Origin: Rubripirellula sp.
GTDB taxonomy: Bacteria > Planctomycetota > Planctomycetia > Pirellulales > Pirellulaceae
Direction of reading: 5' to 3'
NCBI GenBank assembly: GCA_965216875.1
Contig: OZ244207.1
Span: 5,696,001 to 5,760,000 of the forward strand
DNA: 64,000 nt
Both the position numbers and the translations under genes were made by a program. Shown in pieces: positions 2 to 18,302 of the stretch. Numbering within the stretch: the stretch's first letter is position 1; each line of letters opens with the position of its first letter. The notes beneath the pieces are model-generated. The model was given only the letters and a program-made list of their open reading frames with translations, was not told the DNA's origin and made no database searches.

Positions 2-736
2 GTTGGTGAAGCAACCGAAATCATTCGCCGCGGCGACGCCGACGTGATGCTTGCCGGTGGCACTCACAGCATGATTCATCCCTTTGGCGTGACCGGCTTT
101 AACCTGCTGACAGCACTGAGCGAAAGCAACGACGAACCGACCAAAGCGAGTCGCCCCTTCGACCGATTGCGAGACGGATTCGTCTTGGGTGAAGGCTCGG
201 CGATGGTGATTCTGGAAGAACTTGAAGCAGCCAAAGCACGCGGCGCGACGATCTATGGCGAAATCGCAGGCTACGGTACAACGGCCGATGCGTACCGAAT
301 CACCGACATCCCACCGGACGGACACGGCGGTATCGCAGCGATGCGAATGTCGATTGCCGATGCGGGCTTGAACCCTTCCGACATTCAATACGTCAACGCT
401 CACGGAACCAGCACGACCGTTAACGACAAAGTCGAATCGAAAGCGTGCAAAGAAGTTTTTGGTGACAACGCTACCAATGTTCCCGTCAGCAGTACGAAAA
501 GCATGATGGGACACCTGATCGCAGCCGCCGGCGTGACCGAAATGATCGTCTGTTTGATGGCCATGCGTGACTCCGTCCTGCCACCAACGATTAACTACGA
601 AAACCCCGATCCTGAATGCGATCTCGATTACGTGCCCAACGAAGCGCGTGACGCCGAGATTCAATACGCCCTCAACAACAGCTTTGGGTTCGGTGGACAA
701 AACGTAACGCTTTGTTTGAGCCGCTTTGCTGGGTAG
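2..736 (+). CDS. fabF: beta-ketoacyl-ACP synthase II-like protein (5' truncated by window edge)
   Basis: Frame is open from base 2 (VGEATEIIRRGDADVMLAGG); motifs SRPFD, GEG, NAHGTST, GHLIAAAG, NNSFGFGG. Confidence 0.9.
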   Translation, partial: VGEATEIIRRGDADVMLAGGTHSMIHPFGVTGFNLLTALSESNDEPTKASRPFDRLRDGFVLGEGSAMVILEELEAAKARGATIYGEIAGYGTTADAYRITDIPPDGHGGIAAMRMSIADAGLNPSDIQYVNAHGTSTTVNDKVESKACKEVFGDNATNVPVSSTKSMMGHLIAAAGVTEMIVCLMAMRDSVLPPTINYENPDPECDLDYVPNEARDAEIQYALNNSFGFGGQNVTLCLSRFAG

Positions 737-746
737 ACCCATCGTC

Positions 747-1151
747 ATGAGCGAATTCACCGACGCCGAACTCGCTGCCTTTCTTGATGAAGCTCTTACA
801 CCAGAGCGCTGCGCCGATCTCGAAAACGAGCTGCGCACCAACGACGAACTTCGTAACCGATTGATCGAAGTACGTGGTCGCGAAACCGCCGGGCTCCACA
901 CGATCGGTGCCATTTGGCGACGCTCACGTTTGTCCTGTCCGAGCCGCGAAGAGCTCGGCCAATACTTGCTTGGCACTCTCGAAAAAGAACCGCACCAATA
1001 CATCCAATTTCACCTCGAAGAAATCGGGTGCAGGTATTGCCAGGCCAACTTGGCCGACTTGCAAGCCGCGTCCCAATCAGACGACCAACCTGCAAAGCGA
1101 CGTCGACGCTATTTTCAAACCAGCGCTGGCTATCTCAACAAAGACGAGTAA
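747..1151 (+). CDS. hypothetical protein with anti-sigma-like zinc-finger motif
   Basis: ATG 10 bp after the fabF stop; CPSREELGQYL...HLEEIGCRYC resembles zf-HC2 (Hx3-4CxxC). Confidence 0.7.
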   Translation: MSEFTDAELAAFLDEALTPERCADLENELRTNDELRNRLIEVRGRETAGLHTIGAIWRRSRLSCPSREELGQYLLGTLEKEPHQYIQFHLEEIGCRYCQANLADLQAASQSDDQPAKRRRRYFQTSAGYLNKDE

Positions 1152-1165
1152 TCTTCGCTTGAAGA

Positions 1166-1465
1166 TCACGCCGCACGGTACAACATCGACTCCAGTCGAT
1201 CGAGCGTGGTCACCATCTCATTCCACTGCGACATCACATCAAGTGTTGGCAGAGTCACGGCGTCGTCGCGATCGTAACCTTGCTCACTCACTCGAATGGT
1301 TCGTGACAAGACGGTTTCGTCCGCAGACGCTTCTGATTCGCAGTCATCTTCCATTGGCAGGACTTGTTGCATCGTGCGATGCACTGCCCAAACTGCCGCC
1401 TTTTGCGTCGACTCCGCTTGAACGATGCTGCGGAAGGTTCCCGATTGAACGTAGAATTTGGCCAT
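1166..1465 (-). CDS. hypothetical protein (99 aa, MAKFYVQSG...)
   Basis: AAAGGAA Shine-Dalgarno just upstream of ATG at 1465; protein-like composition; fills the gap between neighbours. Confidence 0.7.
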   Translation of the reverse strand: MAKFYVQSGTFRSIVQAESTQKAAVWAVHRTMQQVLPMEDDCESEASADETVLSRTIRVSEQGYDRDDAVTLPTLDVMSQWNEMVTTLDRLESMLYRAA

Positions 1466-1624
1466 GATGATTCCTTTCGTTTTTGCAGTGGTTGGTGAGG
1501 TTGCTCTTGCGATAGTCTTCGTATCGCAGGTGCCTGGACACGTTAGGTCCCACGCTGCAGAAATTGCCAAAAACACGCAGAATCCAATCCGCATTCCATC
1601 CTGAGATCCGTCACGGGCCACTTC

Positions 1625-2959
1625 ATGAAACTGATTCACCACGGCGCACATGAAGGGGTCACCGGTTCCTGTCATCAGTTGCGATGGGACAAAGAACACA
1701 GCTTGCTGGTCGATTGCGGGACGTTCCAAGGCGATGATGCTCGCCGAAATCCCAACCCTGAGATCAACTTTTCGCTCTCTGGCATCGAGTGCCTGTTGTT
1801 GACCCACGTGCACATCGATCACGCTGGTCGTATCCCCTATCTGCTTGCGGCCGGATTCGACAAACCGATCTATTGCAGCTATCCGACCGCGCGATTGCTT
1901 CCGCTGGTCATGGAAGACGCTTTGAAGATTGGCTTCACGCGGTCACGCCGACTGATTGAAAAGTTTCTCAAGCGGATCGGCAAACTGCTACGCCCGATCG
2001 AATATGGCACGTGGCATTCCATCGCCGACGGCGTCAAGATTCGATTGCAGACGGCGGGCCACGTTCTTGGATCGACCGTGTTTGAAGTGGAACTGCCTGA
2101 CGGAAAACGGGTCGTCTTCTCGGGTGACATCGGATCGGGCAACAACCCGTTGCTAAACAAACCGACCAGCCCGACACGTGCCGACTTGCTGGTTCTCGAA
2201 AGCACCTACGGCGATCGTTTCCATCAAACGCACCAGGACCGCCGCGACACGCTTGAACGAGTCCTTCGCAAAACGCTCGAAGACAAAGGCGTGACGATCA
2301 TTCCCGCGTTCAGCCTCGGACGTACTCAAGCACTCTTGTACGAGATGAACGGGATCTTTGAACGCGTTCAACAGACCGACGGGCGATCGCTCATGAAGCA
2401 GGTTGATGTCATCGTCGACTCGCCGTTGGCTTCAAGATTCACACAGCTCTACAAAGAACTGCAAGACTACTGGGGACTCGAGGCGCAGCATGCGGTAAGC
2501 ATGCAAGACCAGCCACTTGTCTTCGAAAACCTCACCACCGTCGGTGGCCACCGCGAACATCGAGACACATTGGATTACATCGATCGGCATCAGCTTCCGG
2601 CAATCGTGATCGCAGGAAGTGGCATGTGCACCGGTGGTCGCGTGGTCAACTATCTAAAACGGTTCATCGAAGATCCCAAAGCTGACATTGTGTTTGTTGG
2701 CTATCAGGCGGGCGGAACGCCGGGTCACTTCATCAGTCGTGGCAGCGATTGGGTCCGTTTGGACGGGCGCAAATACAACATTGCCGCAGACATTCATCGC
2801 ATCCATGGCTACTCAGCCCACGGCGACCAAGCCGACCTGATCGAATTCGCCGAATCGATGGAAAAGCCTCCCGGCGAAATCCGACTCGTCCACGGTGAAT
2901 ACCAGCCGAAACAAACCCTTGCCGAAAAGCTGACCGAGCGTGGCCACCGCGTCATCTGA
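1625..2959 (+). CDS. MBL-fold metallo-hydrolase, beta-CASP RNA-specificity family
   Basis: GVTGSCH, VDCG, THVHIDHAG, AGHVLGS, FSGD, ESTYG, SGMCTGG, YSAH, LVHGE motifs. Confidence 0.92.
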   Translation: MKLIHHGAHEGVTGSCHQLRWDKEHSLLVDCGTFQGDDARRNPNPEINFSLSGIECLLLTHVHIDHAGRIPYLLAAGFDKPIYCSYPTARLLPLVMEDALKIGFTRSRRLIEKFLKRIGKLLRPIEYGTWHSIADGVKIRLQTAGHVLGSTVFEVELPDGKRVVFSGDIGSGNNPLLNKPTSPTRADLLVLESTYGDRFHQTHQDRRDTLERVLRKTLEDKGVTIIPAFSLGRTQALLYEMNGIFERVQQTDGRSLMKQVDVIVDSPLASRFTQLYKELQDYWGLEAQHAVSMQDQPLVFENLTTVGGHREHRDTLDYIDRHQLPAIVIAGSGMCTGGRVVNYLKRFIEDPKADIVFVGYQAGGTPGHFISRGSDWVRLDGRKYNIAADIHRIHGYSAHGDQADLIEFAESMEKPPGEIRLVHGEYQPKQTLAEKLTERGHRVI

Positions 2960-3078
2960 CCAGACACTCGCCTGACGTCGTAACCTCGCTCCGCGTAGTC
3001 ATGCCGTTTGTAGTCCAGCCTTTAAGCGGTTGATGAGCCGAACGCGTGGTCTCGCACTCTTCGCACACCGCGCTCCCC

Positions 3079-3118
3079 GTAGGCCGGATCAAGGAGCGAC
3101 AGCGACGCGGATCCGGCA
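3079..3118 (+). repeat. REP element family A (GTAGGCCGGATC...GATCCGGCA)
   Basis: GTAG foot plus GCCGGATC/GATCCGGC stem; near-identical copies at 27967-28006 (-) and 34835-34874 (+). Confidence 0.85.
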
Positions 3119-3212
3119 TGTCGCCTGACCATCCGCGCAACGTCGGATCTGACCAGACGCTCGCCGAGTCGCTATAGTCCAGCAATCGAATATCGATCGA
3201 ATATGGGAGCGA

Positions 3213-4475
3213 TTGCGGGTGGCGGAAAGCGAACAACTAGATGTAGTGATCGTTGGGGCGGGACTTGCCGGCTTATCATGCGCCATCGCCCTGAGCAAAG
3301 CCGGAAAGTCGGTAGCGATTCTCGAGGCATCCGACCGTGTGGGAGGCCGTGTGCGCAGCGATGTCGTGGACGGCTTTACGCTCGATCATGGTTTTCAAGT
3401 CCTGCTCACGGCCTACCCGGCTTGCGAAGAATTGCTCGACTACGATTCCCTTCGCCTGCGGCCATTCGCACCGGGCGCACTCGTTCGAAAAAACGGGGCC
3501 TTTGCTGTGCTCGCCGACCCGTGGCGATCACCTAGTCAGACCTTTGCCACTGCATTCAACTCGGTTGGCACATGGAAAGACAAACTGCTTGTCGCCAAAC
3601 TTCGCAGCGCCGTCCAATCTGGCAGTCTCGATAGCCTCTATCAAAACGAATCTACAACCACAAAGGAATTCCTCGCCCAGTTTGGTTTCTCGGAGCCCTT
3701 TGTCGAGCAGTTTTTCCGACCCTTCATCGGCGGCGTCTATCTTGATGAATCACTTGAAACATCGAGCCGAATGCTGAAATTCGTTTTTCGCATGTTCTCG
3801 GCCGGCGATGTGGCGGTTCCAGCCGAAGGAATGGGAGCGATACCGAGGCAATTGGCGGAACGTTTGCCGCGGGGAACCATCCGGTTGCAGTCGTCTGTGA
3901 CATCGATCGACGGCAACAGACTAACGCTTGCCGACGGCACGACCCTGGCGGCCAACTCGATTGTGATCGCAACCGAAAGTGGCACTGCGGCCCGGTTGTT
4001 GAAGCAAGAATCGATCGCGACCGAATGGAATCGAGCGACAACCTTTTACTACGCCGCCGACAGCGCGCCCGATGCCCGCAAGATGTTGGTACTTCGTGGT
4101 GACGAATCGGGGATCATTCAGACGGCAACCATCCTCAGCAACGTCGCACCCGAATATGCACCCACCGGCAAAGCACTTGTCTCGGTCAGCGTCTCCGGTC
4201 AAGCCGAGGTCGATATCGACGAAGCAGACAACCAGATCCGTGGCCAATTGAAATCCTGGTACGGTGATGCCGTCACGAGCTGGAAACGCCTGCGTGTCTA
4301 TGACATCCCCTTCGGTGTTCCCAATCGCGATCTTGAGCCAGTGATGTTGCCCATCGACGGACGATCAGTTGGATCCGACGCAAACACCTATCTGTGCGGC
4401 GACCATAGAGAAACGCCCAGCATTCAAGGCGCAATGAACAGTGGCCTTCGCGTAGCCAACGCGATTCTGCGCTAG
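3213..4475 (+). CDS. FAD-dependent oxidoreductase (amine oxidase/protoporphyrinogen oxidase-like)
   Basis: VVIVGAGLAGL, EASDRVGGR, LDHGFQ, CGD...IQGAMNSG; start uncertain (TTG 3213 or GTG 3219). Confidence 0.88.
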   Translation: MRVAESEQLDVVIVGAGLAGLSCAIALSKAGKSVAILEASDRVGGRVRSDVVDGFTLDHGFQVLLTAYPACEELLDYDSLRLRPFAPGALVRKNGAFAVLADPWRSPSQTFATAFNSVGTWKDKLLVAKLRSAVQSGSLDSLYQNESTTTKEFLAQFGFSEPFVEQFFRPFIGGVYLDESLETSSRMLKFVFRMFSAGDVAVPAEGMGAIPRQLAERLPRGTIRLQSSVTSIDGNRLTLADGTTLAANSIVIATESGTAARLLKQESIATEWNRATTFYYAADSAPDARKMLVLRGDESGIIQTATILSNVAPEYAPTGKALVSVSVSGQAEVDIDEADNQIRGQLKSWYGDAVTSWKRLRVYDIPFGVPNRDLEPVMLPIDGRSVGSDANTYLCGDHRETPSIQGAMNSGLRVANAILR

Positions 4476-5725
4476 TTGAAACTGCTGCCAAAGTTGTAGA
4501 CACCTGTGACGGGCACGACCCCGTAGACGCCATCAGTAAAGACTTGGCGAACAAAGTTGTTGAACAACTTGATCGGCGCACTTGGCAGGACAATGACATC
4601 ACCGTCGCGTATCCAAATCTCGTCGCACGGCTGAGCCTCACGTCCCAAGATCGCGCCTCGTACATCGAGCAACGTCGAGATCAACTCGAAGTTGTCACCA
4701 CGTCGAAAGACAACCACCTGGCGTAAGTTCGCGCCCACAACGTGGCCTCCGCCCATGGCGATCGCCCCCAGCACCGTTGTGGGAGTGTCCATGTCGTAGC
4801 GGCCAGGTTGCTTGACCTCGCCGAGAATATAGAAATGGTGCGGTGCTTCTTCGGCAAGCGAAGGTTCGACTTCCAGACCGCCCACGATTTCGTCGTATCG
4901 CAGATTGATCTCTTGCTTCAGTTCTTCGAGCGTCAGGCCCTGTGCTTGCACGCTACCGATTCGCGGCAGACGAATCTCGCCCGAGGGCGTGACGCGTTGG
5001 TCGGTCTGCTGGGGATCAAAGCCACCAACACCGCTGATGGCCTCGCGAATCTGGCGAGCAGCCGTTCCCGTGTTGACCGGCGTCACATCAATCGCCGGTT
5101 CAGGATAGAACTGTTTGTAGCGTCGTTCGAGCACTTCGCGTAATTGCTGGATTGTCTGGCCTGCGGCGTGAACTTGACCAATCAAACGCAATGTGATCGT
5201 TCCGTCGGGTTGAATCTTGAGCCCCTTCTCGAGCGTCCCCCGTGTCAGTTGCTCGTCGGCTTCCGATTCGATCAGCAATTCGTCTCCAACAACAAGACGA
5301 TAGCTGCCTTCCGTTTTCAAAGCGGTCAACAAAAAGGTGAGTTCGATCGTATCGCCGGTCCGCAATCGATATTCGGGAACGCGAAACGTTCGAGAGGGCC
5401 CTGCGTATTCGCCAGGCCCAAGCTGATCGAATGGCGAGTGATAGGGACACTGCCAGCATTGACAATCGTGGGGATGGTCAATCGGCCCAATACCGAGTTT
5501 CATCCCCGTGCCGCCAATCAAACCATCCCCGCTACGATTGACGCAGGTTCGATGATGCGCAAACGAATGCCCGTCTTGAACGTACGTCGGCGCGTTTTGC
5601 TGGACAACCGTTTCGCTGGTTTGAAAGGCGACGACAGGTTCGTCGCCGCGCGTTTGTTGCGACATCGTGAACGCGGCGACCAACAGCGCGAGTGTTCGAG
5701 TCCGATTGCGAAGACTTTCCAACAT
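4472..5725 (-). CDS. polysaccharide export protein, Wza/OPX family
   Basis: Signal peptide; two Poly_export-like segments (IQPDGTITLRLIGQVHAAGQT; VTPSGEIRLPRIGSVQAQGLT); SLBB (ILGEVKQPGRY...AIAMGGG); IRDGDVIVLP. Confidence 0.85.
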   Translation of the reverse strand: MLESLRNRTRTLALLVAAFTMSQQTRGDEPVVAFQTSETVVQQNAPTYVQDGHSFAHHRTCVNRSGDGLIGGTGMKLGIGPIDHPHDCQCWQCPYHSPFDQLGPGEYAGPSRTFRVPEYRLRTGDTIELTFLLTALKTEGSYRLVVGDELLIESEADEQLTRGTLEKGLKIQPDGTITLRLIGQVHAAGQTIQQLREVLERRYKQFYPEPAIDVTPVNTGTAARQIREAISGVGGFDPQQTDQRVTPSGEIRLPRIGSVQAQGLTLEELKQEINLRYDEIVGGLEVEPSLAEEAPHHFYILGEVKQPGRYDMDTPTTVLGAIAMGGGHVVGANLRQVVVFRRGDNFELISTLLDVRGAILGREAQPCDEIWIRDGDVIVLPSAPIKLFNNFVRQVFTDGVYGVVPVTGVYNFGSSFN

Positions 5726-5782
5726 GATGGTACGATGTGCTTTTTGAGGGGGTGATCGATAGGTTGTCCGTTTGGCGCAGCG

Positions 5783-5830
5783 TTGGCTACCGCCCGAATG
5801 AAAGCCTTGGCTACCGCCCGAACGAAAGCC
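5783..5830. repeat. 24-bp tandem duplication spanning the stop codon of the TPR gene
   Basis: ttggctaccgcccgaaYgaaagcc x2 (5783-5806, 5807-5830). Confidence 0.9.
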
Positions 5831-7853
5831 ATGACTTCGCTTTGCTGATCAGCGCGTTGGGTTTCTTTTTTAGCTTCTGCTTTTCGGTGACTGGAAGCCT
5901 GGTTTGTTTCGGCTGGATCGCAGGTTTGTGAACCTTTGTGGGTTGATGCGTTTTCGCGAACTGCTCGGGCGCCATTTGGTTGACCGGAATCACCGATTCC
6001 TGCTTGAGCTTTGCCAAAGCCTCAACGCATGACTTGGCGCCTTCGATGTCGTCGATTCGCAACGAGGCATCGAGCAACTGATGATAGGCGCGAGGCGTTG
6101 GCCGAACGGTGACACTCTGCTTAAGCATCTTGATCGCCGACTCAATCAGGCCCTGATTGAGGAGCGAGCTGCCGAGTTCTTGCAGTGCGGTCGCGTTGTC
6201 CGGAGCAACTTCCACTGCAGCTCGGTGCAGCGTCAATGCGACAGCGGCGGCGTGTGCATCCGAGTCGCCTGCGATTTTTTGCTCGACCTTGCCAAGCATC
6301 ACCAAAGCGTCGCTCGCTTCGCGGCTTCCGCCCGATGCGATGACAAGGTCTTTGCGAGCCTGCGCGAGGTAAAGTTCGGTCGCTCTCAGCGGTGCGAGCT
6401 TGCTAAGGTCGACGCCTTGCAACGCATCCGTTTCGTGGACAGCGACCATCCGTTTAAGTGCGGCGTTATTCACTGGCCCGAATCGTCCAGCAAAGTCCTC
6501 CGACTCACGAATCGCATTCAGAGCGGCATCAAGTTTTTGGCCGTGAACGGAGGAACTCGAGAGGGCATCGTGCATTGCGACGATACCGCGAAGCGATTGC
6601 AACGTCATTTTGCGAGCCGAATGATAGGCGCCTCGCTGGTACCGTTGGTGGGCACTATACAGCGATTGCCTCGCGAGTTCGCGTTGTCGTGTCGCGTGAA
6701 TCGTCGCCGTGACCACATCACCAGGCTCCGTCGTCGAACCTGCCGCGGGTAGGGCGTGTCGCGTCGGCTTTGGCTTCGAAACCGGCTGAGCCTTGACCCT
6801 GTTTGCGAGTGGCAGCTCCATCGTGACCGGTTCCCGCTTGTTGACGGCTGCGGGCTTGCTTGCGAATTCGGGCATCACCAACGTCGACGTTGGTCGGCTG
6901 GTCGCGATGTCGACGTTTGGATCGGCCGCATACGTTGGAACATGACTTTGCTTGGGTGCCAGCGTTTTCTCTTGCAACGTCGGGCCAGCTTGATCGCCAG
7001 CGACGTCCTCGATCATCCCCAGATCTGCCGCAAGTGCACCACCGATGGCCTTCGGAATTCTCGGCTGTGGTGTAGCGGTGACAGGTTTCACATCGTCAAG
7101 CGGTCGGATGTCGCCTCGCTGTTGGAGCGTCAAGCGTTGCACCTTCGGCGCTGCTGACGGCGCAGCCACTTCGCTGGCGTCGTTCGACTCAAGCCATCGC
7201 CGAGACTTTTCCCAGGAGGCGTGGGTATCCTGAGCGGCACGCGTAGGCCGATCCACATTCCGCTTCATGACGTCCGCGAAGCTGTCTTCGGCGGAAACAT
7301 CGACGTTCCCGACGGCCGAAGGCAAGCGAGCAGGTTGGCTCGGCTGGTCGACGACCAACACGCGAGGAAGGCGTTTGATCGTCGTGATCTCTCGCGACGG
7401 GGTTTGCTCGATGCCTCGCGACGGTTTTTGCTCAATGTCTCGCGACGTTTTTTGCTCGATTTCTCGCGACGGGGTCTGTTCCGGTTCCGCTGCTTGGACC
7501 TTTGGAGACTCGACCACTTGAGCGTCGTCGATCGGGACGATCTCTTGAGACTCAATCACGATCGGCTCGGGAACGATCACCTCGGGCACGGCTTTTAAGA
7601 TCGAGGGTTGATCATCATGTGGCGTCAGAACGCGGACCGACCGCTTGGGAGCTAATTTGCGGTGCAGTGGTTGCAATTCGGACCGCTGCCAACCTTGCGA
7701 CAGCATCGATCGCATTGGACTCGCGTTGACTTCAACATCCTTGTCATCAGCATCCAACGCGACTTGGCCAGCACAGACAATCGTTGCGGCAAGTGCGAGG
7801 CGTTTGGCCAACCGCGGGCGACGGCGAGACTCTTCCATGAGACAGCTTTGCAT
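5811..7853 (-). CDS. secreted protein with Pro/Ala-rich disordered N-half and C-terminal TPR-like helices
   Basis: Signal-like RLALAATIVCAGQVALDA; TPR-like AVEVAPDNATALQELGSSLLNQGLIESAIKMLKQSVTVRP; directly upstream of and co-oriented with the OPX gene. Confidence 0.75.
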   Translation of the reverse strand: MQSCLMEESRRRPRLAKRLALAATIVCAGQVALDADDKDVEVNASPMRSMLSQGWQRSELQPLHRKLAPKRSVRVLTPHDDQPSILKAVPEVIVPEPIVIESQEIVPIDDAQVVESPKVQAAEPEQTPSREIEQKTSRDIEQKPSRGIEQTPSREITTIKRLPRVLVVDQPSQPARLPSAVGNVDVSAEDSFADVMKRNVDRPTRAAQDTHASWEKSRRWLESNDASEVAAPSAAPKVQRLTLQQRGDIRPLDDVKPVTATPQPRIPKAIGGALAADLGMIEDVAGDQAGPTLQEKTLAPKQSHVPTYAADPNVDIATSRPTSTLVMPEFASKPAAVNKREPVTMELPLANRVKAQPVSKPKPTRHALPAAGSTTEPGDVVTATIHATRQRELARQSLYSAHQRYQRGAYHSARKMTLQSLRGIVAMHDALSSSSVHGQKLDAALNAIRESEDFAGRFGPVNNAALKRMVAVHETDALQGVDLSKLAPLRATELYLAQARKDLVIASGGSREASDALVMLGKVEQKIAGDSDAHAAAVALTLHRAAVEVAPDNATALQELGSSLLNQGLIESAIKMLKQSVTVRPTPRAYHQLLDASLRIDDIEGAKSCVEALAKLKQESVIPVNQMAPEQFAKTHQPTKVHKPAIQPKQTRLPVTEKQKLKKKPNALISKAKSWLSFGR
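7387..7480 (-). repeat. intragenic 24-bp tandem repeat, about 4 copies (QTPSREIE-like octapeptide)
   Basis: ctcgcgacg recurs at 7391, 7415, 7439 and 7463. Confidence 0.85.
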
Positions 7854-8285
7854 CGAGAAGGAATGGCGCGCCGCGTCCAGCAGCGCGCAACCTGAAATAT
7901 CCTGTCTCTTCGGATCGACGATCCCCGCGCACCAAGCTCACTGATTCAGATCGGATCGCGGTCGCATCGCGCAGACCGAAGATCAAAAGTGAAAAGACCG
8001 GCGAGGTTCCCGCAGCGATTACATTCCCGACCAGCGGGGTGACGGGCACAATCGCTACAGGCCGCAACCGGCGCGCTGCGAGTGTTTCACGGATCGTCTC
8101 GATCGAACTTTGACAATTAAATGGATCATCAGGGCGGTTTGAATCACCCCCCAGTGGTGAAACGACCGGTTTTGGTTGATCGCCAAAGGCGGGTGCATAG
8201 CGGCAACCTACAGTTCTGCGGAGGAATCTGCGTCCTCTCCCCACCACCGTTCCGTTGGTTGACTGCCAACAACAAGAACTGCTTC

Positions 8286-9947
8286 ATGAGCCAATCGCAG
8301 CCATCACCCGATTTTCCATCAATCGACGCCTCAACCGGGGCGTTTGAGCCGATGGCAATGTCGAGCAGCGACCCGGTGCTGGGCTACCCCGCAACCGAAC
8401 CGGCATCGATTGATCTCGGCCCCATCCCAAGCGGCGTGGGCGCGAAGCCATCAGCAAAATCAAAACCGGCCGAAACAAAGCCAAGCCGCAGCGGATCGAA
8501 GGCACCACCGATTCGTAAACCCGAAAAGCGATCGGGACCTCCACTTCCCAAGCGTCCGAAGGGTCGTCTCTTCATCGGCACCGTCTTCCTGGCAGTGATC
8601 GGATCGATCGGCTTTACGCTGTTTGATTCATTGCTTCGCTACACCGCATACGGCGAGGTAACGGGCCGCCGCTTAGAACTGGCTGTGCCTTGGCCCGGTG
8701 TCATCCAATCGATTCACGTTCGCGAAGGCGACCATGTTGAATTCGGTCAAGTGATCGCCACGATCGACAACTTTGAACTCAAGCAAAAGATCGAAGAGAT
8801 CGACGATTCACTTCGACTACAACGTGCACAGCTTTCGAGCGAGTTGGCGATGTTGCGTTGGGAGGCCGAAAAGATTCGTGACCTTCATAAACTGGCGCAA
8901 AGCGAGTTCTATGACAAATGGAGCGAATTGCTTTGGGAACAATCGCGATTGGCCGATTTACAAACCCAACTCAAACGGATCGAACCGATCTTACGCGAGG
9001 GTGCGGCCAGCAAAGAGCAGTACGATTCCCTTCAATTCCAAGTCGCTGGCCAAGAAAAACGCGTCGAACAACTGATCGAGGCGGTTCGAGCACTGAAGAA
9101 GCGAACCGATCAGTCGCCCGTCGAACTCGACATGGAAGACCGTATCCAACCGACACTGGCTCGAATCGAAAACCTGCAAGCCGAACTGCAGCGAACGCGA
9201 GACATGATCCAGCAGGGCGATATCCGAGCACCAGCTGGCGGTCGCGTTGTGCGAACTCACCGATTCGCGGGTGAATACGCCGAACCCACCACACCGGTTG
9301 TCGAACTGCTCGTCGACGGGTCAACCGAACTCGTCCTTTACTTGCCTCAATCGCGAGCTGAAGAGTTTCCGATCGGGCGAAGCGTGACGGTGAACGTCAA
9401 TCCAGCGAACACGAACGTTGCTTGCCAAGTTCACCGTGTCGCATTGGAAATGAAAAAGGCTCCCGAAAGCCTGGCTCGCTTTTACCAGAACGATGAAACC
9501 TTGTTGCCGGTCTACCTGCGCGTGACCGATTGGGGATCGACCGAAGGGGAACTGACCCTCGGCAGCCAACTTCGTTTGCCCCGCGCCGACAACGTGTCGG
9601 TGATTGCCAAACTGAAACGCTGGTGGACAGAAACCGCGCTGCCAAGTTTCACATCCGTTGATCACGCCTCCCAGGTGTTAGAACCGGAACCTTCGGTGCA
9701 AACCGTTTCCGAGCAAGAACCTGAGCACCATCCAGCCGATACTGAACAAAGCGAAATCGATGGGCGCACTGCTGGATGGATTCGAGAGTTTCAGAAAGCC
9801 GAACAACGGCGTATGAACCCCGCCCGCCAAGCTCGTGCCATGCCCGTGACCACTTGCGTCTTATCAGCGCCCGTGATTTGTTCGACGGTTGAATATGAAT
9901 CCATCTCCCAACGGAAATCTGAATCCGGAACTGTCTCCGCCAATTGA
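8286..9947 (+). CDS. HlyD-family periplasmic adaptor (membrane fusion) protein
   Basis: Single TM (LFIGTVFLAVIGSIGFTLF); lipoyl halves PWPGVIQSIHVREGDHV and IRAPAGGRV flanking a long coiled coil. Confidence 0.85.
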   Translation: MSQSQPSPDFPSIDASTGAFEPMAMSSSDPVLGYPATEPASIDLGPIPSGVGAKPSAKSKPAETKPSRSGSKAPPIRKPEKRSGPPLPKRPKGRLFIGTVFLAVIGSIGFTLFDSLLRYTAYGEVTGRRLELAVPWPGVIQSIHVREGDHVEFGQVIATIDNFELKQKIEEIDDSLRLQRAQLSSELAMLRWEAEKIRDLHKLAQSEFYDKWSELLWEQSRLADLQTQLKRIEPILREGAASKEQYDSLQFQVAGQEKRVEQLIEAVRALKKRTDQSPVELDMEDRIQPTLARIENLQAELQRTRDMIQQGDIRAPAGGRVVRTHRFAGEYAEPTTPVVELLVDGSTELVLYLPQSRAEEFPIGRSVTVNVNPANTNVACQVHRVALEMKKAPESLARFYQNDETLLPVYLRVTDWGSTEGELTLGSQLRLPRADNVSVIAKLKRWWTETALPSFTSVDHASQVLEPEPSVQTVSEQEPEHHPADTEQSEIDGRTAGWIREFQKAEQRRMNPARQARAMPVTTCVLSAPVICSTVEYESISQRKSESGTVSAN

Positions 9948-10788
9948 TGGTGGTGATCCGATTCCGTTGGATGATCTGATGGATCGGCGTCAGCTGAATC
10001 GGCGCGAATCAACGCGTCCGATCGCGGTGGTCCCGGTCTTGCTTGACGGTGGTCCCGGCGAACTTCAGTGGGCCGAGGCTATCACCGAAGATGTCTCAGC
10101 GACCGGCCTCTCGCTACGGATGCAAAGTCAATCGACGCTTCCATGCCGCAATGTGGTGGTGGGCGCCGAGTCCGCCGCGGGTGGACGTGCCTTCGGCACA
10201 CTTCAAATTGTTTCGCAGACTCAATCCGACGACGGTGTCTTGCGAATCGGCGGCAAATGGGTGATCGGATCCTCTGAAGACATTCTCGTCCCCGACAAGC
10301 TCCGTCCACGCGTGGACCCCCGCACGTTGTCGTTTGTGTACGGATGGTCCGAAGAAACGCTCAAGAAATGGACGCGGCTGGGCGTGCTTCGCCAATACCT
10401 CGTCGACCGAGTGCTGCTGTGCGATCGTTGCGGATCGATTCCGTCTTGGCGAAATGGATGCCACGTTTGTGGTTCGGGCCGGATCCATCGCGACCGCCTG
10501 ATTCATCACTTCGCCTGTGCTCACGTCGATCGAGCCGCCGACTTCGAAACCGCCGATGGACTGCAATGTCCCAAATGCCGAACGAACAATTTGATCGTTG
10601 GGTCGGACTACGAGTTCATCGAAGGTCCCGTTGAATGCTACGACTGTGGCGCCCGCGGCGGGCAACCCACGATGGCGGCGATGTGCCACCGATGCCACCA
10701 CCGCTTCAGCATGGAAGAAGCAGAAGAACGCATGTTGTACGCCTACCACGTCGAGCGTCTCGACCCGGTTACCTTCTACGCATCCTAG
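9895..10788 (+). CDS. PilZ domain fused to TackOD1-like multi-cysteine zinc-binding domain
   Basis: RQLNR (RxxxR) and DVSATG (DxSxxG); C-terminal CDRC, CHVC, HHFAC, CPKC, GSDY, CYDC, CHRC. Confidence 0.75.
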   Translation: MNPSPNGNLNPELSPPIDGGDPIPLDDLMDRRQLNRRESTRPIAVVPVLLDGGPGELQWAEAITEDVSATGLSLRMQSQSTLPCRNVVVGAESAAGGRAFGTLQIVSQTQSDDGVLRIGGKWVIGSSEDILVPDKLRPRVDPRTLSFVYGWSEETLKKWTRLGVLRQYLVDRVLLCDRCGSIPSWRNGCHVCGSGRIHRDRLIHHFACAHVDRAADFETADGLQCPKCRTNNLIVGSDYEFIEGPVECYDCGARGGQPTMAAMCHRCHHRFSMEEAEERMLYAYHVERLDPVTFYAS

Positions 10789-10803
10789 CCACGAGCATCC
10801 GCC

Positions 10804-12087
10804 ATGATTTCGGATTGGCTGCGCTGGTTAACGCAGTTGCAGACCGCTGAATTGCTCTGGCTTCTGGCGCCCATTCTCTTGCTCGATGCGCCGCGGTACG
10901 CTCTGGGAACGCTCACACTTTGGTTGTGGGACTTTCTCGAAGACACCTACAAATCAATTCGCGGTGAAGACGAAGTCCGTCCCTTCAGTCACCAACCGCG
11001 TTGCTGCGCGATCGTCGCCGGATTGAACGAAGCCGATTCACTTGGCCAGACACTCGATTCGCTTGCCGGCTCCTATCCAGACCTGCAAATCGTGGTGGTC
11101 GACGATGGAAGCACCGATGGCATGTCCGAAGTTGCGTGTGAGTTCGCCAAGACGCATTCGAAGACAACGGTCGTTCGCAAACCGGCGCGCGGTGGTAAAA
11201 GCAGCGCGCTCAACGCTGCCCTTCCCTTCACCGACGCCGAGATTCTGGTCTGTGTCGACAGCGACTCGCACTTGGGCGATGGTGCCGTCTGGGAAATCGT
11301 GCAACCCTTTGTCGACCCCAACGTGGCCGCGGTCAGTGGTACGGTGCTTGTTCGCAAACCCTTTATCAATTTGCTGACTTGGATCCAGGCCCTTGAGTAT
11401 TACCGCTGCATCTTTCTCGGTCGCATGTTCACCAGCCGACTGGGAATCCTAGGGATTGTTTCGGGCGCCTTTGGTGCTTACCGTCGCGAAGCAATCTTGC
11501 AGGTGGGCGCTTGGGATGTCGGTCCGGGAGAAGATGGTGACTTGACGTTGCGGTTGCGTCGCTCGGGCTACGACGTCGTCTTCGCCCCCTATGCCCAATG
11601 CTTTACCAATCCAGTCCAACAGATGGGTCGTTTGTCCAAACAGCGGCGTCGCTGGGAATGGGCTGTCATCACGTTGGAATGTCGCAAGCACATCGAAATG
11701 GCGAACCCGTTTCGAGCCGACTTTCGCTTCAGCAATTTCGTGATGCTGGTCGACCGATGGCTTTACAGCGTCGTGCTTCAATACGCCTTCTTGGGGTACA
11801 TGTTCTGGTACCTCTTTCACATCCATGCCTTCGCCCACTATCAGCTCATGCTGTTCTATGTGGTTTACCTTGGCATGGAAATCCTGCAACTGATGATCTT
11901 GTTGTACTACTGTGACAACAAGCGACGTGTGATGATGATCGGTGCGGTCTTTCCGCTGATGCCCTTCTACTACATCTGGATGCGATTCGTGACGCTGTGG
12001 GCAATCACCGAAGAATTGCTGACGCGACGAAGCTACAAAGACAACTTTGTTCCCGAACACGTTCGCAACGTGACGTGGCACTGGTAA
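10804..12087 (+). CDS. processive GT2 glycosyltransferase (PgaC/IcaA/HasA-like synthase)
   Basis: DDGSTD, GGKSSALN, VDSD, SGAFGAYR, GED, QRRRW; N-terminal and several C-terminal TM segments. Confidence 0.9.
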   Translation: MISDWLRWLTQLQTAELLWLLAPILLLDAPRYALGTLTLWLWDFLEDTYKSIRGEDEVRPFSHQPRCCAIVAGLNEADSLGQTLDSLAGSYPDLQIVVVDDGSTDGMSEVACEFAKTHSKTTVVRKPARGGKSSALNAALPFTDAEILVCVDSDSHLGDGAVWEIVQPFVDPNVAAVSGTVLVRKPFINLLTWIQALEYYRCIFLGRMFTSRLGILGIVSGAFGAYRREAILQVGAWDVGPGEDGDLTLRLRRSGYDVVFAPYAQCFTNPVQQMGRLSKQRRRWEWAVITLECRKHIEMANPFRADFRFSNFVMLVDRWLYSVVLQYAFLGYMFWYLFHIHAFAHYQLMLFYVVYLGMEILQLMILLYYCDNKRRVMMIGAVFPLMPFYYIWMRFVTLWAITEELLTRRSYKDNFVPEHVRNVTWHW

Positions 12088-12132
12088 CAATGCGAATTGG
12101 CACGGGTAACATCGTGGCTTGGCACGGGTAAC
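12076..12132 (+). repeat. three 13-bp direct repeats with exact 22-bp period
   Basis: tggcac[t/g]ggtaac at 12076, 12098 and 12120; the first copy contains the GT2 stop codon. Confidence 0.85.
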
Positions 12133-12233
12133 GGGGTCGACCAGGAACCTCGTGCCGAATCGGCTCTTCGCATTATCCACAGGTTTTCGCCCCGGCATTC
12201 TTCAGTCAAAATGGTTGCTTCCTCCTGGAGTGA

Positions 12234-13241
<1,008 letters not shown>

Positions 13242-13250
13242 GTTTCCATC

Positions 13251-13994
13251 GTGTCAACAACACCACCGCAACACGACATCAGTATCGACGCGGCTCAAGC
13301 ACTCACCGATGACCCAACATCCGAGCTCGGGCAAATGGCGACCTTGGCCAATGAGCGCATCGAGTGGCACTGGGAACCAACCGTGATCGCTGGGCACGTT
13401 CGGCCGCTCGCCGTTGCCACCGATCCTGATGGCATGTTGATCGAAGCCTGTGAGCGGCAAGATGCCGGCGAAGAGGGTGTGATCGATCCTTTTTGGGCGA
13501 CAACCTGGCGCGCTGCATCGGGCTTGGATCGCTACCTCGACAGGTTCGACTTGGTCGACAAACGTGTTCTTGAGCTTGGATGTGGCACGGGCCACGCGGG
13601 CCTGGCTGCCGCTCTACGTGGCGCCAAGGTGGTCCTTACCGACGGGGTCGAAGATCCGTTGCGGTTGGTGCGCATGAGCACCTGGTTTGTTCGCCAGCAC
13701 TGCGAGGTCCAGGTGCTGCGATTTGGTATCGACCGCTTGGACCAACCTTCCTACCCGATGATCCTGGGAAGCGACGTCACCTATCTGCGAACGCTTTGGC
13801 CCGAGCTCGATCAGTGCTTGAAAGAGCATCTTGCCGATGACGGAATCGTGCTTCTAAGTGACCCGTTTCGCATCATTGCCAACGAGTTTCGCGACTGGAT
13901 CCAAGAGCGCGGCTGGAAGTACAGCGAAACGAGCGTCGACCTTGAAGATGGCAACAAACATCCGATTCGCGTGATGCAACTCGAACGCGGTTAG
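13251..13994 (+). CDS. class I SAM-dependent methyltransferase (protein-lysine methyltransferase-like)
   Basis: PFWATTW, VLELGCGTG, VVLTD, ILGSDVTY. Confidence 0.85.
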   Translation: MSTTPPQHDISIDAAQALTDDPTSELGQMATLANERIEWHWEPTVIAGHVRPLAVATDPDGMLIEACERQDAGEEGVIDPFWATTWRAASGLDRYLDRFDLVDKRVLELGCGTGHAGLAAALRGAKVVLTDGVEDPLRLVRMSTWFVRQHCEVQVLRFGIDRLDQPSYPMILGSDVTYLRTLWPELDQCLKEHLADDGIVLLSDPFRIIANEFRDWIQERGWKYSETSVDLEDGNKHPIRVMQLERG

Positions 13995-14000
13995 CAAGCG

Positions 14001-14456
14001 TTAGGCGGTCACCAAATCGTCGCTGGCGATGTCGAATGCATCGATGGTTGGATCGTGTCGATGCACCAAGCTCGCACCAATCTCGTAGCACTTGCTTGTG
14101 ATCCGTCTTGCTCGCACGACGTGCAATTGCACCCAGAACGTAGGCAGGACAATCCGCACACTTTCTTCGGGATAGATCTCGAAGGGTGTCAGAAAGCCGC
14201 AACCGTGCCGTGAAAAGTCGCGGGTGTAGATTCCCACCGCCTTGTCGCCGCGTGACAGAAACGGCAGGCAGTCGTCGAACCACATCACACCGTGGGTACG
14301 CACCTTCAAACGCTGGTTGTTACGTTCATCTTCGACGAACGAAGGAACTTCACCACGCTCCTCGAAATAGTCAGACCATTCGACCGGCAATTCGATGTCG
14401 AAGCCGATCGATTGGATCAGTTCGCCAAATCGCGTTGAATAATCGACTTCCAGCAT
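14001..14456 (-). CDS. PilZ domain protein
   Basis: RNNQR (RxxxR) and DFSRHG (DxSxxG) followed by beta-strands. Confidence 0.8.
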   Translation of the reverse strand: MLEVDYSTRFGELIQSIGFDIELPVEWSDYFEERGEVPSFVEDERNNQRLKVRTHGVMWFDDCLPFLSRGDKAVGIYTRDFSRHGCGFLTPFEIYPEESVRIVLPTFWVQLHVVRARRITSKCYEIGASLVHRHDPTIDAFDIASDDLVTA

Positions 14457-15373
14457 TGGAACATCTCCGGATCAAAAGCAGTCCCACAGTCACGTTGCTG
14501 AAGCGTCAGTGCTTTGCTTCGCGGCATCGGGGTGCGGTAAGGTCGGTGGCTTGTAAGCGCTTCGAAAACATCAACGATCGCGCAGATTTTGGCCCAAGGG
14601 TGGATATCGTCGTCAACACAACCGACGGGATAACCTTTGCCATCAAGTCGCTCGTGGTGCTGGTAGGCCATCATCAGTTGGCCTTCATTCAGGTCGACGC
14701 GATGCGCCATCTTGCGAAAGCCGAGCAAGGGATGCGTGCGAATCGTTCGGAATTCCCATTCGTCCAAACGTCCGGGTTTGCACAGGATTCTCTCGTCGAT
14801 ATCCAGCTTGCCCAAATCGTGAAGCAAGCCGCCAGTGGTGATTTGTTCGATTTCGGTGCGATCGAATCCTAAGCCGGCTCCCAACATGCCACAGTAAAAG
14901 GCGACATTGGCTGAGTGGGTAAAGGTTGCGTAATCATGATGCAACACTTGAAACAGGTCGCCGGCGGCGAATTCGTCTTTGGTGACGATATCAGCTGCGA
15001 GCAGACCCAGTTTTTCGGCAGCCGAAACCGTTTCGTCCACATCATTGTTGTGGAAGGCGGACTGCAGCACATCGCGAACAACCTCATTGAGTGCACCGGC
15101 GCGAGCGGCGAGAGGAATTGATGTGTTGTCCGTTCCAATCGCAATGCGGCGCAAGTACTTCTGATAAAGCGATCGCGACTCTTGCGAGATATAGAGGCGA
15201 TGGATTCCTCTGGAACGCAAGCGATCCAAGTCATCCAAGGTGATTGGATATTCTTCGCCTCGATAGAGAACCAACCGTTCCGAGTCAGCCTCCTGCTGAT
15301 ACAGATTCAGCCCCACTGCTTCCGTGGGAAGCAGCGTTGCGACGCTGATCGGGATGAAATCGACTCCGGACAT
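14417..15373 (-). CDS. HD-GYP domain c-di-GMP phosphodiesterase
   Basis: HSANV, LLHDLGK, HP, HHERLDGKGYP, DVFEALTSHRPYR; start chosen at MSGVDF. Confidence 0.92.
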   Translation of the reverse strand: MSGVDFIPISVATLLPTEAVGLNLYQQEADSERLVLYRGEEYPITLDDLDRLRSRGIHRLYISQESRSLYQKYLRRIAIGTDNTSIPLAARAGALNEVVRDVLQSAFHNNDVDETVSAAEKLGLLAADIVTKDEFAAGDLFQVLHHDYATFTHSANVAFYCGMLGAGLGFDRTEIEQITTGGLLHDLGKLDIDERILCKPGRLDEWEFRTIRTHPLLGFRKMAHRVDLNEGQLMMAYQHHERLDGKGYPVGCVDDDIHPWAKICAIVDVFEALTSHRPYRTPMPRSKALTLQQRDCGTAFDPEMFQCWKSIIQRDLAN

Positions 15374-15601
15374 GGTCGTGTTAGGGCAAGTTGTTGGGCG
15401 GGGGACGTTCTTATGGGGGGCGACAATCGGATGTCCCTGGAGAAATCTAGTGCGCAGGGGAGCACGTGCCACCAAGAAATGGGTGAAACGCGCACTGTTG
15501 TGAGAGTGTGAGTGCGCAAGAGAAAGTGCTGGCCCAAATTGGCCAGCACTGTCGTTACAGCCGTTACAGATAGAAGGAAATTGCCGACGGGGTATCGTCA
15601 A

Positions 15602-16663
15602 TTACACGGCGCCGATGCCCAGTTTTTTTTCCTCGGCAGCGATCATTTGCGAGATAATGTCCTGCAAATCGACGCGAATGTCCCACTCGGGATAGTGCGA
15701 GCGGAGTTTTCCGAGATCACTGATGTAGCAGATGTGGTCGCCCTTTCGATTGTCATCCGACAGGGTGAAGTCGACCTTGTGCCCCCCGATCTCTTCGATC
15801 ATCGAAATACACTCGAGAACGCTGGCAGCATTCTGACGCCCGCCGCCAATGTTGTAGACCTCGCCGGGGCGAGGATCGCCGGCAAAGGCTTCGAACGCTT
15901 TGACCACGTCGCTACATTCGATTTGGTCGCGAACCTGCTTGCCTTTGTAGCCAAAGATCGTGTACGGCTTGCCTGCGACGGCGACATGGACCAAGTAACT
16001 CAGAAATCCATGCAATTCAACGCCGCTATGACTCGCCCCCGTCAAACAGCCGCCACGGAATACGCCTGTCTTGAGACCGAAGTACTTGCCGTACTCTTGA
16101 GCCACGATGTCGGCTGCGGTTTTTGATGCTCCGAAAAGCGAATGCATCGTCTGGTCGATGCGGCACGACTCGTCGATGCCTTCGAAATCTTCGTCACGCG
16201 AATATTCCCAACGCGTCTCCAGCTCATCCAGCGGCAGCTCATTCGGTGCGTCACCGTAAACCTTGTTCGTGCTCATGTGACAGAACACGGCGTCGGGAGC
16301 ATGCTGACGCGTCGCTTCGAGCAGATTCAGCGTGCCGTTCGCATTGACTTCGAAATCAAGGAACGGGATCGCCGCTGCCTTATCGTGCGAGGGCTGCGCG
16401 GCACAGTGAATGATCAAATCGGGCGTTTCATTCTTGAACAGATCAAAGATGCGTTCGCGGTCGCGAATATCGATGGACTCTGTACGAAAGTGATTCGTTT
16501 CCGATTCCAATCGAGACTGATTCCATTGAGTGCTTCCGTCGGGACCAAAGAAGGTGGCTCGCATATCGTTATCGATACCGATCACCTCGTCGCCCAGAGC
16601 ATCCCAATGTCGAACCGCCGCGGATCCAATCAAACCGCTGGATCCCGTAACAATCACACGCAT
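15602..16663 (-). CDS. NAD-dependent epimerase/dehydratase (CDP-paratose 2-epimerase-like)
   Basis: TGSSGLIG, AAQPSHD, STNKVYGD, FGASK, GKQVRD, YNIGGG. Confidence 0.9.
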   Translation of the reverse strand: MRVIVTGSSGLIGSAAVRHWDALGDEVIGIDNDMRATFFGPDGSTQWNQSRLESETNHFRTESIDIRDRERIFDLFKNETPDLIIHCAAQPSHDKAAAIPFLDFEVNANGTLNLLEATRQHAPDAVFCHMSTNKVYGDAPNELPLDELETRWEYSRDEDFEGIDESCRIDQTMHSLFGASKTAADIVAQEYGKYFGLKTGVFRGGCLTGASHSGVELHGFLSYLVHVAVAGKPYTIFGYKGKQVRDQIECSDVVKAFEAFAGDPRPGEVYNIGGGRQNAASVLECISMIEEIGGHKVDFTLSDDNRKGDHICYISDLGKLRSHYPEWDIRVDLQDIISQMIAAEEKKLGIGAV

Positions 16664-16724
16664 CGATTTCTATCTACCAACAAATGCCAAGTTGTCAATC
16701 AAGTTGTTCATTCAAGTGGCGAGG

Positions 16725-18059: not shown

Positions 18060-18302
18060 TTGATTCTCACCTTTGACATACCAACTGAGGTATTTGCTCT
18101 TTCGTGACCTTGATTGTAGTTCGGTAGGGGGTGAGTCATACCTTCGCTGCAGCGGATTCACCATCCTGCAGCCAACGGCGTCACCCAAGCCGTAAAACCG
18201 GAATCAATGCTATTGTCGATACGACAGTCTAGCCAGCCAGGTCATCCTGGCGGCTGGAGTTAGGGAACGCGGATTTCGCAGTCACGGCCCGCAATTCGAC
18301 GA

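Follow-up and report, generated by a model that had tools for sequence, protein, structure and literature searches.

The 64,000-nucleotide stretch of the Rubripirellula sp. genome analyzed here (contig OZ244207.1, positions 5,696,001 to 5,760,000; hereafter, the window) carries five genes, arranged in two divergent arms, which a first-pass annotation had taken for a single, undescribed exopolysaccharide system gated by cyclic di-GMP (c-di-GMP). The left arm encodes a protein with tetratricopeptide repeat (TPR) likeness and a Wza-like outer-membrane polysaccharide export (OPX) protein, while the right arm encodes an HlyD-type adaptor, a regulator combining a PilZ domain with a TackOD1 zinc-ribbon module, and a membrane glycosyltransferase of family 2 (GT2). 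The five genes are real, yet they represent two modules rather than one system. The conserved unit is the right arm, i.e., the HlyD adaptor, the TackOD1 zinc-ribbon protein and the processive GT2, and by sequence comparison this trio is homologous to mxdABC of Shewanella, an already studied system, so that the term ‘undescribed’ was too strong. What appears to be new, as judged from sequences and structural models, is a lineage of MxdA homologues without the C-terminal tail of MxdA and with an N-terminal PilZ domain bearing both c-di-GMP motifs.

Conservation of the adaptor, regulator and synthase genes

The neighbourhood of the GT2 gene was compared across 48 related loci, of which 46 belong to the family Pirellulaceae outside the source genome and two are loci L011 and L013; downstream cover was at most 6 kb for most of the family loci. 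A TackOD1 gene was found to adjoin the GT2 gene in 47 of these loci and an HlyD gene in 45, all misses being situated at contig or locus ends, in loci with less than 1.8 kb of upstream sequence. Where at least 6.4 kb of upstream sequence was present, both genes stood beside the GT2 gene without exception (39/39 loci). A fourth conserved gene was not found around the family loci.

The distribution of the GT2 is patchy, in that six of the 41 relatives yielded a match, as did 46 of the 401 family genomes and eight of the 251 genomes of the class. Its closest named relatives are those of Rubripirellula sp. (87%) and Rhodopirellula sp. (81%), and a single-GT2 search of genome contigs returned only two loci. 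The same three genes were also encountered in alpha- and gammaproteobacterial records, and in plasmid records the genes of the best GT2 matches were immediately preceded by a TackOD1 gene and followed by an HlyD-type gene. Locus L107:7910-13287 is rearranged, its HlyD and TackOD1 genes being located on the strand opposite the GT2 gene. In the Alisedimentitalea locus L050:5548-10202, the regulator tail has apparently been split off as a small open reading frame (ORF), and galE directly follows the HlyD gene, a possible hint of a galactose or N-acetylgalactosamine precursor.

The TPR and OPX genes as a separate module

In the relatives, the OPX and TPR genes were not generally syntenic with the GT2 arm: both were found beside it in only two of the 48 loci, or two of the 39 with sufficient upstream sequence, an outcome that the first-pass annotation had itself named as refuting its reading. 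These two loci, from genomes G002 and G616, are the nearest kin of the source locus (GT2 identities of 87% and 77%) and form one clade with the source GT2. A broader OPX profile added two OPX-like matches near GT2 genes, a weak one in L070 and one of another paralogue type in L080, bringing the total to 4/48, while this wider profile returned no OPX match in 20 loci of other planctomycetes and 21 proteobacterial or metagenome loci.

The OPX gene is also the more widespread of the two, with matches in 26 of the 41 relatives versus six for the GT2. A close OPX orthologue (E ≤ 1e-128) is present in 33 of the 401 family genomes, in 27 of which no GT2 match was found, and three of the six genomes with both have them apart, these figures being counts of ‘not found in those searched’ among genomes of mixed completeness. 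In the single-contig genome G479, the OPX and GT2 genes lie 4.4 Mb apart by coordinates. Of the 20 OPX loci that were mapped, 18 lack the GT2 arm, and eight relatives display an empty site, reading OPX-TPR-(ThuA)-hemB with no arm gene between TPR and hemB; these include a member of the same genus (L113, whose assembly contains a number of broken frames) and members of the genus of G616 (L158 and L159). Among relatives, the site beside the TPR and OPX genes is accordingly occupied by the cassette in some cases and empty in others. The source genome itself harbours a second TPR-OPX pair (G000:C1:2083798-2086458) without a GT2 gene nearby, and a TPR gene lies upstream of the OPX gene in 31 of 34 OPX loci (16/18 and 15/16 in the two sets). 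Because of the empty sites, the second, GT2-less pair and the recurrent upstream TPR gene, the TPR and OPX genes are regarded as a planctomycete module of their own, and likely as a mere neighbour of the GT2 cassette. The pair also occurs as an orphan planctomycete gene pair in loci L109-L126 and L158-L173.

The OPX protein contains two Poly_export stretches, an SLBB domain and a cysteine-rich N-terminus without an evident lipobox; it returns Wza matches in the PDB, and its alignment with E. coli Wza reveals a C-terminal helix of the Wza type. The TPR-like protein has a long low-complexity N-terminus, in which four imperfect tandem repeats of eight residues were noted (window positions 7380-7480), and its TPR matches fall below the Pfam cut-offs (23.1 and 22.5 bits) and are confined to residues 534-594. 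Its Atlas clusters, at 0.94-0.98, consist of hypothetical and TPR_17 proteins of Planctomycetota. No Wzc-like gene was found near the OPX gene in any of 37 OPX loci, for each of which 10-20 kb was fetched, and three Wzc-like genes located elsewhere in the source genome could serve the TPR-OPX pair in trans.

These data bear on the hybrid pathway originally proposed for the locus, in which the HlyD adaptor would dock, with TPR assistance, on the adjacent OPX protein, through which the GT2 product would leave across the outer membrane. The two arms are indeed adjacent and divergent in the source genome, G002 and G616, the OPX protein has the Wza-type helix, the missing Wzc-like gene leaves its inner-membrane partner vacant, and the wider profile found the matches in L070 and L080; an exit in trans would further be consistent with a related OPX somewhere in four of six GT2-bearing genomes. 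Against this stand the low linkage, the eight empty sites with an intact OPX-TPR pair, the genomes in which a close OPX is found without the GT2 or apart from it, the second pair, and the lack of OPX matches in the 41 more distant loci, while G024 and G028 (88% and 94% complete) possess the GT2 and no OPX match at E ≤ 1e-40. An OPX exit is thus considered very improbable. The same low probability is given to a narrower version, in which an orphan OPX would have been recruited by the HlyD adaptor in the small TPR-OPX-linked clade alone, an alpha-helical Wza-type exit replacing TolC under a PilZ-swapped MxdA homologue. The hybrid most likely reflects a coincidence of gene neighbours, and no new export architecture is established.

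Kinship with Shewanella mxdABC

In Shewanella, mxdB encodes a membrane GT2 and mxdC a protein resembling an efflux pump, and mxdA and mxdB mutants show neither aggregation nor three-dimensional biofilms (PMC3691769). MxdA has been reported to be a c-di-GMP-binding protein that also binds CheY3 and is the probable activator of the machinery (PMC7666153, PMC11395469, PMC13713693). The Mxd polymer is described in these sources as ‘proposed’.

MxdA of S. oneidensis (AAN57153.1) was found within a cluster of TackOD1 proteins and matches TackOD1 with 238.7 bits, in addition to a weak GGDEF match. Comparison of the source regulator with MxdA by hhalign returned a match of 97.8% (E 1e-12) that covers the zinc region only. 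Of the 15 metagenome loci retrieved with MxdA, 14 have a GT2 matching the source GT2 (E 1e-35 to 1e-42) directly downstream, and the HlyD adaptor matches that of the mxd-type locus L052 with 25% identity (E 4e-6).

In the synthase phylogeny, a tree of 38 rows unites the 29 TackOD1-linked GT2s in a single clade (Shimodaira-Hasegawa-like approximate likelihood ratio test, SH-aLRT, 98) apart from an outgroup of nine, i.e., PgaC (two rows), IcaA, NodC and five other GT2s. A first tree of 76 rows gave long-branch warnings and placed a single stray row within the clade (support 86); the rebuild dropped BcsA, two short paralogues of the source genome and redundant rows.

Several points weigh against this kinship. 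No MxdD-like gene was found: the protein at the MxdD position of L052 had no match in the source genome, and its sole match among 90 loci was the protein itself. The tree is a quick one, with SH-aLRT as its sole support measure and nine outgroup rows, from which BcsA and BgsA were left out as too distant. In pairwise comparison, two unrelated GT2s of fused architecture score as high against the source GT2 (148 bits) as the MxdB-like GT2s do (27.6% identity, 148 bits), and the MxdB-like sequences are stand-ins, taken from loci in which the regulator shares 39-76% identity with MxdA, rather than MxdB of S. oneidensis itself. Other MxdA-like loci likewise lack the MxdD-position protein, so that mxdD may not define the family.

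An additional observation concerns MxdA itself, in which the cited GGDEF-analogous ‘NVDEF’ (residues 358-362) precedes an RxxD motif (within residues 387-399) by approximately 30 residues. Among relatives, R387 is retained in 107/109 and D390 in 108/109, and in the Pfam alignment the decayed GGDEF position follows the RxxD motif. RxxD is the consensus of the I-site, and this I-site-like motif would be a likelier c-di-GMP site of MxdA than ‘NVDEF’, as far as the alignment indicates.

The GT2 synthase

The GT2 contains the motifs D100DGS, D152SD, E243D and Q280RRRW and has no PilZ domain of its own; its D,D,D,QxxRW motifs are invariant in 106 relatives. Its best NCBIfam match, PgaC_IcaA, scores 135 bits against a cut-off of 422. 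The structural model (mean predicted local distance difference test, pLDDT, 90.6) resembles hyaluronan synthase, an archaeal mannosyltransferase and BcsA, with hyaluronan synthase as the best full-length fold (template modelling score, TM, of ~0.70). BcsA and BgsA are distant, with 32 and 25.8 bits by blastp and 38.6 and 18.6 bits against the GT2 profile. As the nearer GT2 families are PgaC/IcaA and hyaluronan synthase rather than BcsA or BgsA, an N-acetylhexosamine-type polymer may be offered as a guess.

The enzyme might instead produce a short oligosaccharide, a glycolipid or a protein-linked glycan, with no long exported polymer. NodC-type enzymes share the motifs of the source GT2 and make oligomers; the archaeal membrane mannosyltransferase (6yv7) is the second-best fold and the best PDB sequence match, and the family loci have no deacetylase, hydrolase or porin gene as a conserved neighbour. 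This alternative is nonetheless improbable in view of the HlyD adaptor kept in every locus with sufficient upstream sequence, the hyaluronan synthase fold, and the loss of aggregation and three-dimensional biofilm in mxd mutants.

The TackOD1 regulator and its PilZ domain

The PilZ domain of the regulator spans approximately residues 30-124 and carries R32xxxR36 and D66xS68xxG71, in line with the c-di-GMP motif consensus of PilZ domains, RxxxR and (D/N)x(S/A)xxG. The zinc region comprises five CxxC and one HxxC motif. Across 67 relatives the PilZ motifs are conserved above their surroundings (R32 in 53, R36 in 57, D66 in 53, S68 in 45 and G71 in 59). The regulator model (pLDDT 90.9) aligned with the PilZ domain of cellulose synthase 4i86 in a VIA structural alignment (Z 11.3, root-mean-square deviation 2.8, 91 aligned); the next PilZ matches were BcsA PilZ domains (Z 11.1 and 11.0), and ranks 1-17 were nearly all PilZ proteins. 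These matches support the six-stranded barrel of a PilZ fold. Among the matches listed in the whole-regulator fold searches, none was to the zinc module, and the aligned ranges, which reach residue 297, suggest that in the model the zinc ribbons are inserted before the last PilZ helix. The regulator ends seven residues past the zinc region, with no match to a GGDEF-like tail. The fusion of PilZ and zinc domains described in the first-pass annotation is upheld, the TackOD1 match by Pfam and the PilZ domain by fold and motifs.

A PilZ domain and a GGDEF-like tail never co-occur in the 97 TackOD1 rows examined, some loci of which are repeated, and Pfam applied to subsets agrees that the two are mutually exclusive. 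On the GT2 tree, the presence or absence of the tail amounts to one change, with L050 scored as possessing it; the tail-less clade has a support of 100 and lies among tail-bearing groups, some of them of the same phylum. The direction of this PilZ/GGDEF swap and the root of the tree are tentative. The PilZ domain of the regulator is predicted, from its sequence and model, to sense c-di-GMP in place of the degenerate GGDEF domain.

This prediction has to be set against four results. The Pfam PilZ model (PF07238) scores below its cut-off (14.6 bits versus 22.5, E 0.042), while the regulators of three relatives exceed it. Foldseek returned no match for the regulator model at E ≤ 0.001, PilZ proteins ranking first at E 5e-3 and weaker. 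The local PilZ and GGDEF profiles were built from the groups they separate, so that the figure of 0/97 is partly circular. Finally, only 27 of the 46 family regulators have kept the two PilZ motifs intact, and c-di-GMP gating is therefore not universal in the clade. Others have receiver domains or a decayed PilZ domain.

Loci L071, L072, L075, L093 and L095 (ORFs of ~600-725 amino acids) encode receiver-(receiver)-PilZ-TackOD1 regulators, which would combine phosphorylation and c-di-GMP inputs. In L083-L085 and L087-L090 the PilZ domain is decayed, with loss of the first arginine and of DxSxxG, and a convergent TolC-like lipoprotein gene abuts the GT2 gene where the contig reaches. An apparent natural regulator-GT2 fusion in L100 (1044 amino acids) was rejected, since the regulator C-terminus continues in another frame, indicating a frameshift in an overlapping gene pair.

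Such variation would also fit a polymer made without c-di-GMP gating, in which TackOD1 would be a structural activator, the PilZ domain a scaffold or relic, and the input phosphorylation or transcription. One or both PilZ motifs are lacking in 19 of the 46 family regulators, one or two receiver domains are present in many regulators, some of which have no recognizable PilZ domain, and TackOD1 has been described as a response-regulator output domain (PMC5847659). For the source regulator this is judged unlikely: it retains both motifs and has no receiver domain, which leaves PilZ as its sole evident input; the motifs are better conserved than the sequence around them, and its homologue MxdA is a c-di-GMP effector.

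Proposed mechanism and exit route

The reading that we consider probable is that of a c-di-GMP-switched GT2 which extrudes a polymer, with the HlyD adaptor delivering it to a TolC-type channel whose gene lies elsewhere and with the TPR-OPX pair being separate. In this scheme, c-di-GMP would bind the PilZ domain of the regulator, and the TackOD1 module would relay the signal by contact with the GT2, switching it on. The GT2 would then polymerize a sugar chain and move it across the inner membrane, the adaptor would hand this chain to the TolC-type channel, and the polymer may serve as a biofilm or aggregation matrix. For the right arm, the original view agrees with this and remains the best reading: a synthase-type module of GT2 and HlyD that has its gate on a separate PilZ protein.

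TolC appears a likelier exit than OPX by analogy with other systems. TolC is required for the GT2-HlyD system BgsAB (PMC13438883), and a TolC exit has been proposed, although unconfirmed, for XcsAB (PMC12430437). The source genome contains 19 OEP matches and 10 GGDEF-motif ORFs, and TolC-like genes lie on the strand of the cassette in three of 20 other planctomycete loci, and same-strand TolC-like genes are located within the tail-type loci L141, L146 and L151 and near L047. Less favourably, TolC-like neighbours occur in only nine of the 48 loci, seven of them convergent and mostly from one genus, so that the TolC exit is argued by analogy. The convergent neighbour was not used as proof of the exit, as it is mostly from one genus.

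Layout of the locus

ORF calls and Pfam bear out the first annotation of the five ORFs in strand, spacing and motifs, although the spacing depends on start choice (Table 1). The HlyD and regulator ORFs overlap by 53 bp and the regulator and GT2 genes are separated by 15 bp; an ATG at 8121 already opens the HlyD frame, and the overlap disappears if an in-frame ATG at 9979 is taken as the regulator start. The HlyD protein has a single hydrophobic segment by hydropathy (residues 93-118) and low-complexity N- and C-terminal extensions. The GC content of the five genes (0.55-0.59) matches that of the window (0.57).

Table 1. Positions of the five genes and the divergent intergenic region, in window coordinates
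Feature	Position	Strand	Basis or remark
Wza-like OPX	4472-5725	-	Poly_export 96.9 bits and SLBB (Pfam)
TPR-like protein	5811-7853	-	Weak TPR matches (Pfam)
Divergent intergenic region	7854-8285	.	432 bp; left edge of stretch missing at empty sites
HlyD/membrane-fusion periplasmic adaptor (MxdC-like)	8286-9947	+	Pfam HlyD_3 39.5 bits
PilZ and TackOD1 zinc-ribbon regulator	9895-10788	+	Pfam TackOD1 102.2 bits
Processive-type membrane GT2 synthase (MxdB-like clade)	10804-12087	+	Pfam GT2 families over cut-off

A promoter scan found no sigma-70-type match in the divergent intergenic region, and neither the promoter scan (three sites versus 2.4 expected) nor the terminators (14 versus 9.6 +/- 3.2) yielded anything usable. 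The first-pass annotation had stated that Wzx, Wzy, Wzc and ABC transporter genes are lacking from the locus. For Wzc this holds across the window, the three Wzc-like matches of the genome all being far off; for Wzx, Wzy and ABC genes the statement is narrower, as none was seen among the 15 scanned ORFs (window 726-18188), with no dedicated profile search. Short two-copy direct repeats were noted at 5785-5830, in the OPX-TPR gap, and at 12099-12130, in the GT2-hemB gap; the direct-repeat 23-mer has only two copies genome-wide at up to two mismatches. Some 2 kb beyond the GT2 gene, a stand-alone PilZ gene (14001-14456) overlaps an HD-GYP-type gene (14417-15601). These two genes, as well as an epimerase and a UDP-glucose dehydrogenase gene downstream, were rejected as parts of the cassette, being present also at cassette-free sites.

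Significance

In the single paper found to mention it, the function of TackOD1 has been called obscure, and the domain has been noted in some bacteria (PMC5847659). The present analysis ties it to a studied c-di-GMP effector, MxdA. Across phyla, TackOD1 stays beside one GT2 clade while the input domain varies between a degenerate GGDEF, a receiver and a PilZ domain. A testable claim follows, namely that TackOD1 is the part that addresses the synthase, with two unrelated c-di-GMP receptors being used on the same machine. The locus is furthermore a candidate matrix or aggregation locus for the Pirellulaceae, present in the 46 of 401 searched genomes mentioned above. Literature searches, outside which most subscription papers fall, found no work linking MxdA, the zinc domain and the degenerate GGDEF domain, nor any on an mxd-type GT2/diguanylate cyclase/HlyD set in Vibrio, and, by title and abstract start, papers on planctomycete exopolysaccharide with c-di-GMP or PilZ included none concerning the source locus.

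Comparison with known systems

The source OPX protein shares Poly_export and SLBB domains and the Wza-type C-terminal helix with class 1 OPX proteins (Wza, of Wzx/Wzy pathways), which were reported in 56 of 62 Planctomycetes genomes (bioRxiv 10.1101/2022.02.11.480155). It differs from them in its two Poly_export stretches, its cysteine-rich N-terminus without evident lipobox, the TPR gene upstream and the lack of a Wzc-like gene nearby. The PgaC/IcaA synthases of poly-N-acetylglucosamine are alike in GT2 size and motifs but constitute a separate clade, and no conserved neighbour resembling PgaA/B/D or IcaB/C/D was seen around the family loci.

The cyanobacterial XcsA-XcsB(HlyD)-TolC cellulose system (PMC12430437) similarly combines a synthase, an HlyD adaptor, a proposed TolC exit and a PilZ c-di-GMP input. 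In XcsA, however, the PilZ domain is fused to the cellulose synthase, whereas it resides on a separate protein here; the GT2 belongs to a different clade, and the source cassette has no endoglucanase. The Sinorhizobium BgsA/BgsB system with TolC (PMC13438883) likewise pairs a GT2 with an HlyD adaptor under c-di-GMP control, with the outer-membrane channel encoded elsewhere. The likeness to BgsAB drawn in the first-pass annotation holds for the GT2/HlyD pairing and fails for the synthase, as BgsA is far more distant than the MxdB-like GT2s (25.8 versus 148 bits). BgsA, the sequence of which was picked by position and Pfam in pSymB (L136), is a 669-amino-acid protein of the cellulose-synthase type, barely alignable to the source GT2 (E 0.095), and its bicistronic operon has no third, zinc-ribbon gene.

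The closest counterpart is Shewanella MxdABCD, with which the source cassette has in common a TackOD1 regulator, a GT2 of the same clade and an HlyD-type adaptor in a tight operon, as well as a c-di-GMP-receptor-type domain on a separate regulator and no gene for an outer-membrane exit in the operon. The gene order is HlyD-regulator-GT2 here and regulator-GT2-HlyD in Mxd, and GT2 identity is ~28%. The source regulator begins with a PilZ domain and ends after the zinc ribbons, whereas the N-terminus of MxdA is longer and a degenerate GGDEF domain forms its C-terminal part; because its regulator is without this domain, the source cassette is best described as a variant of Mxd and not as MxdABCD proper.

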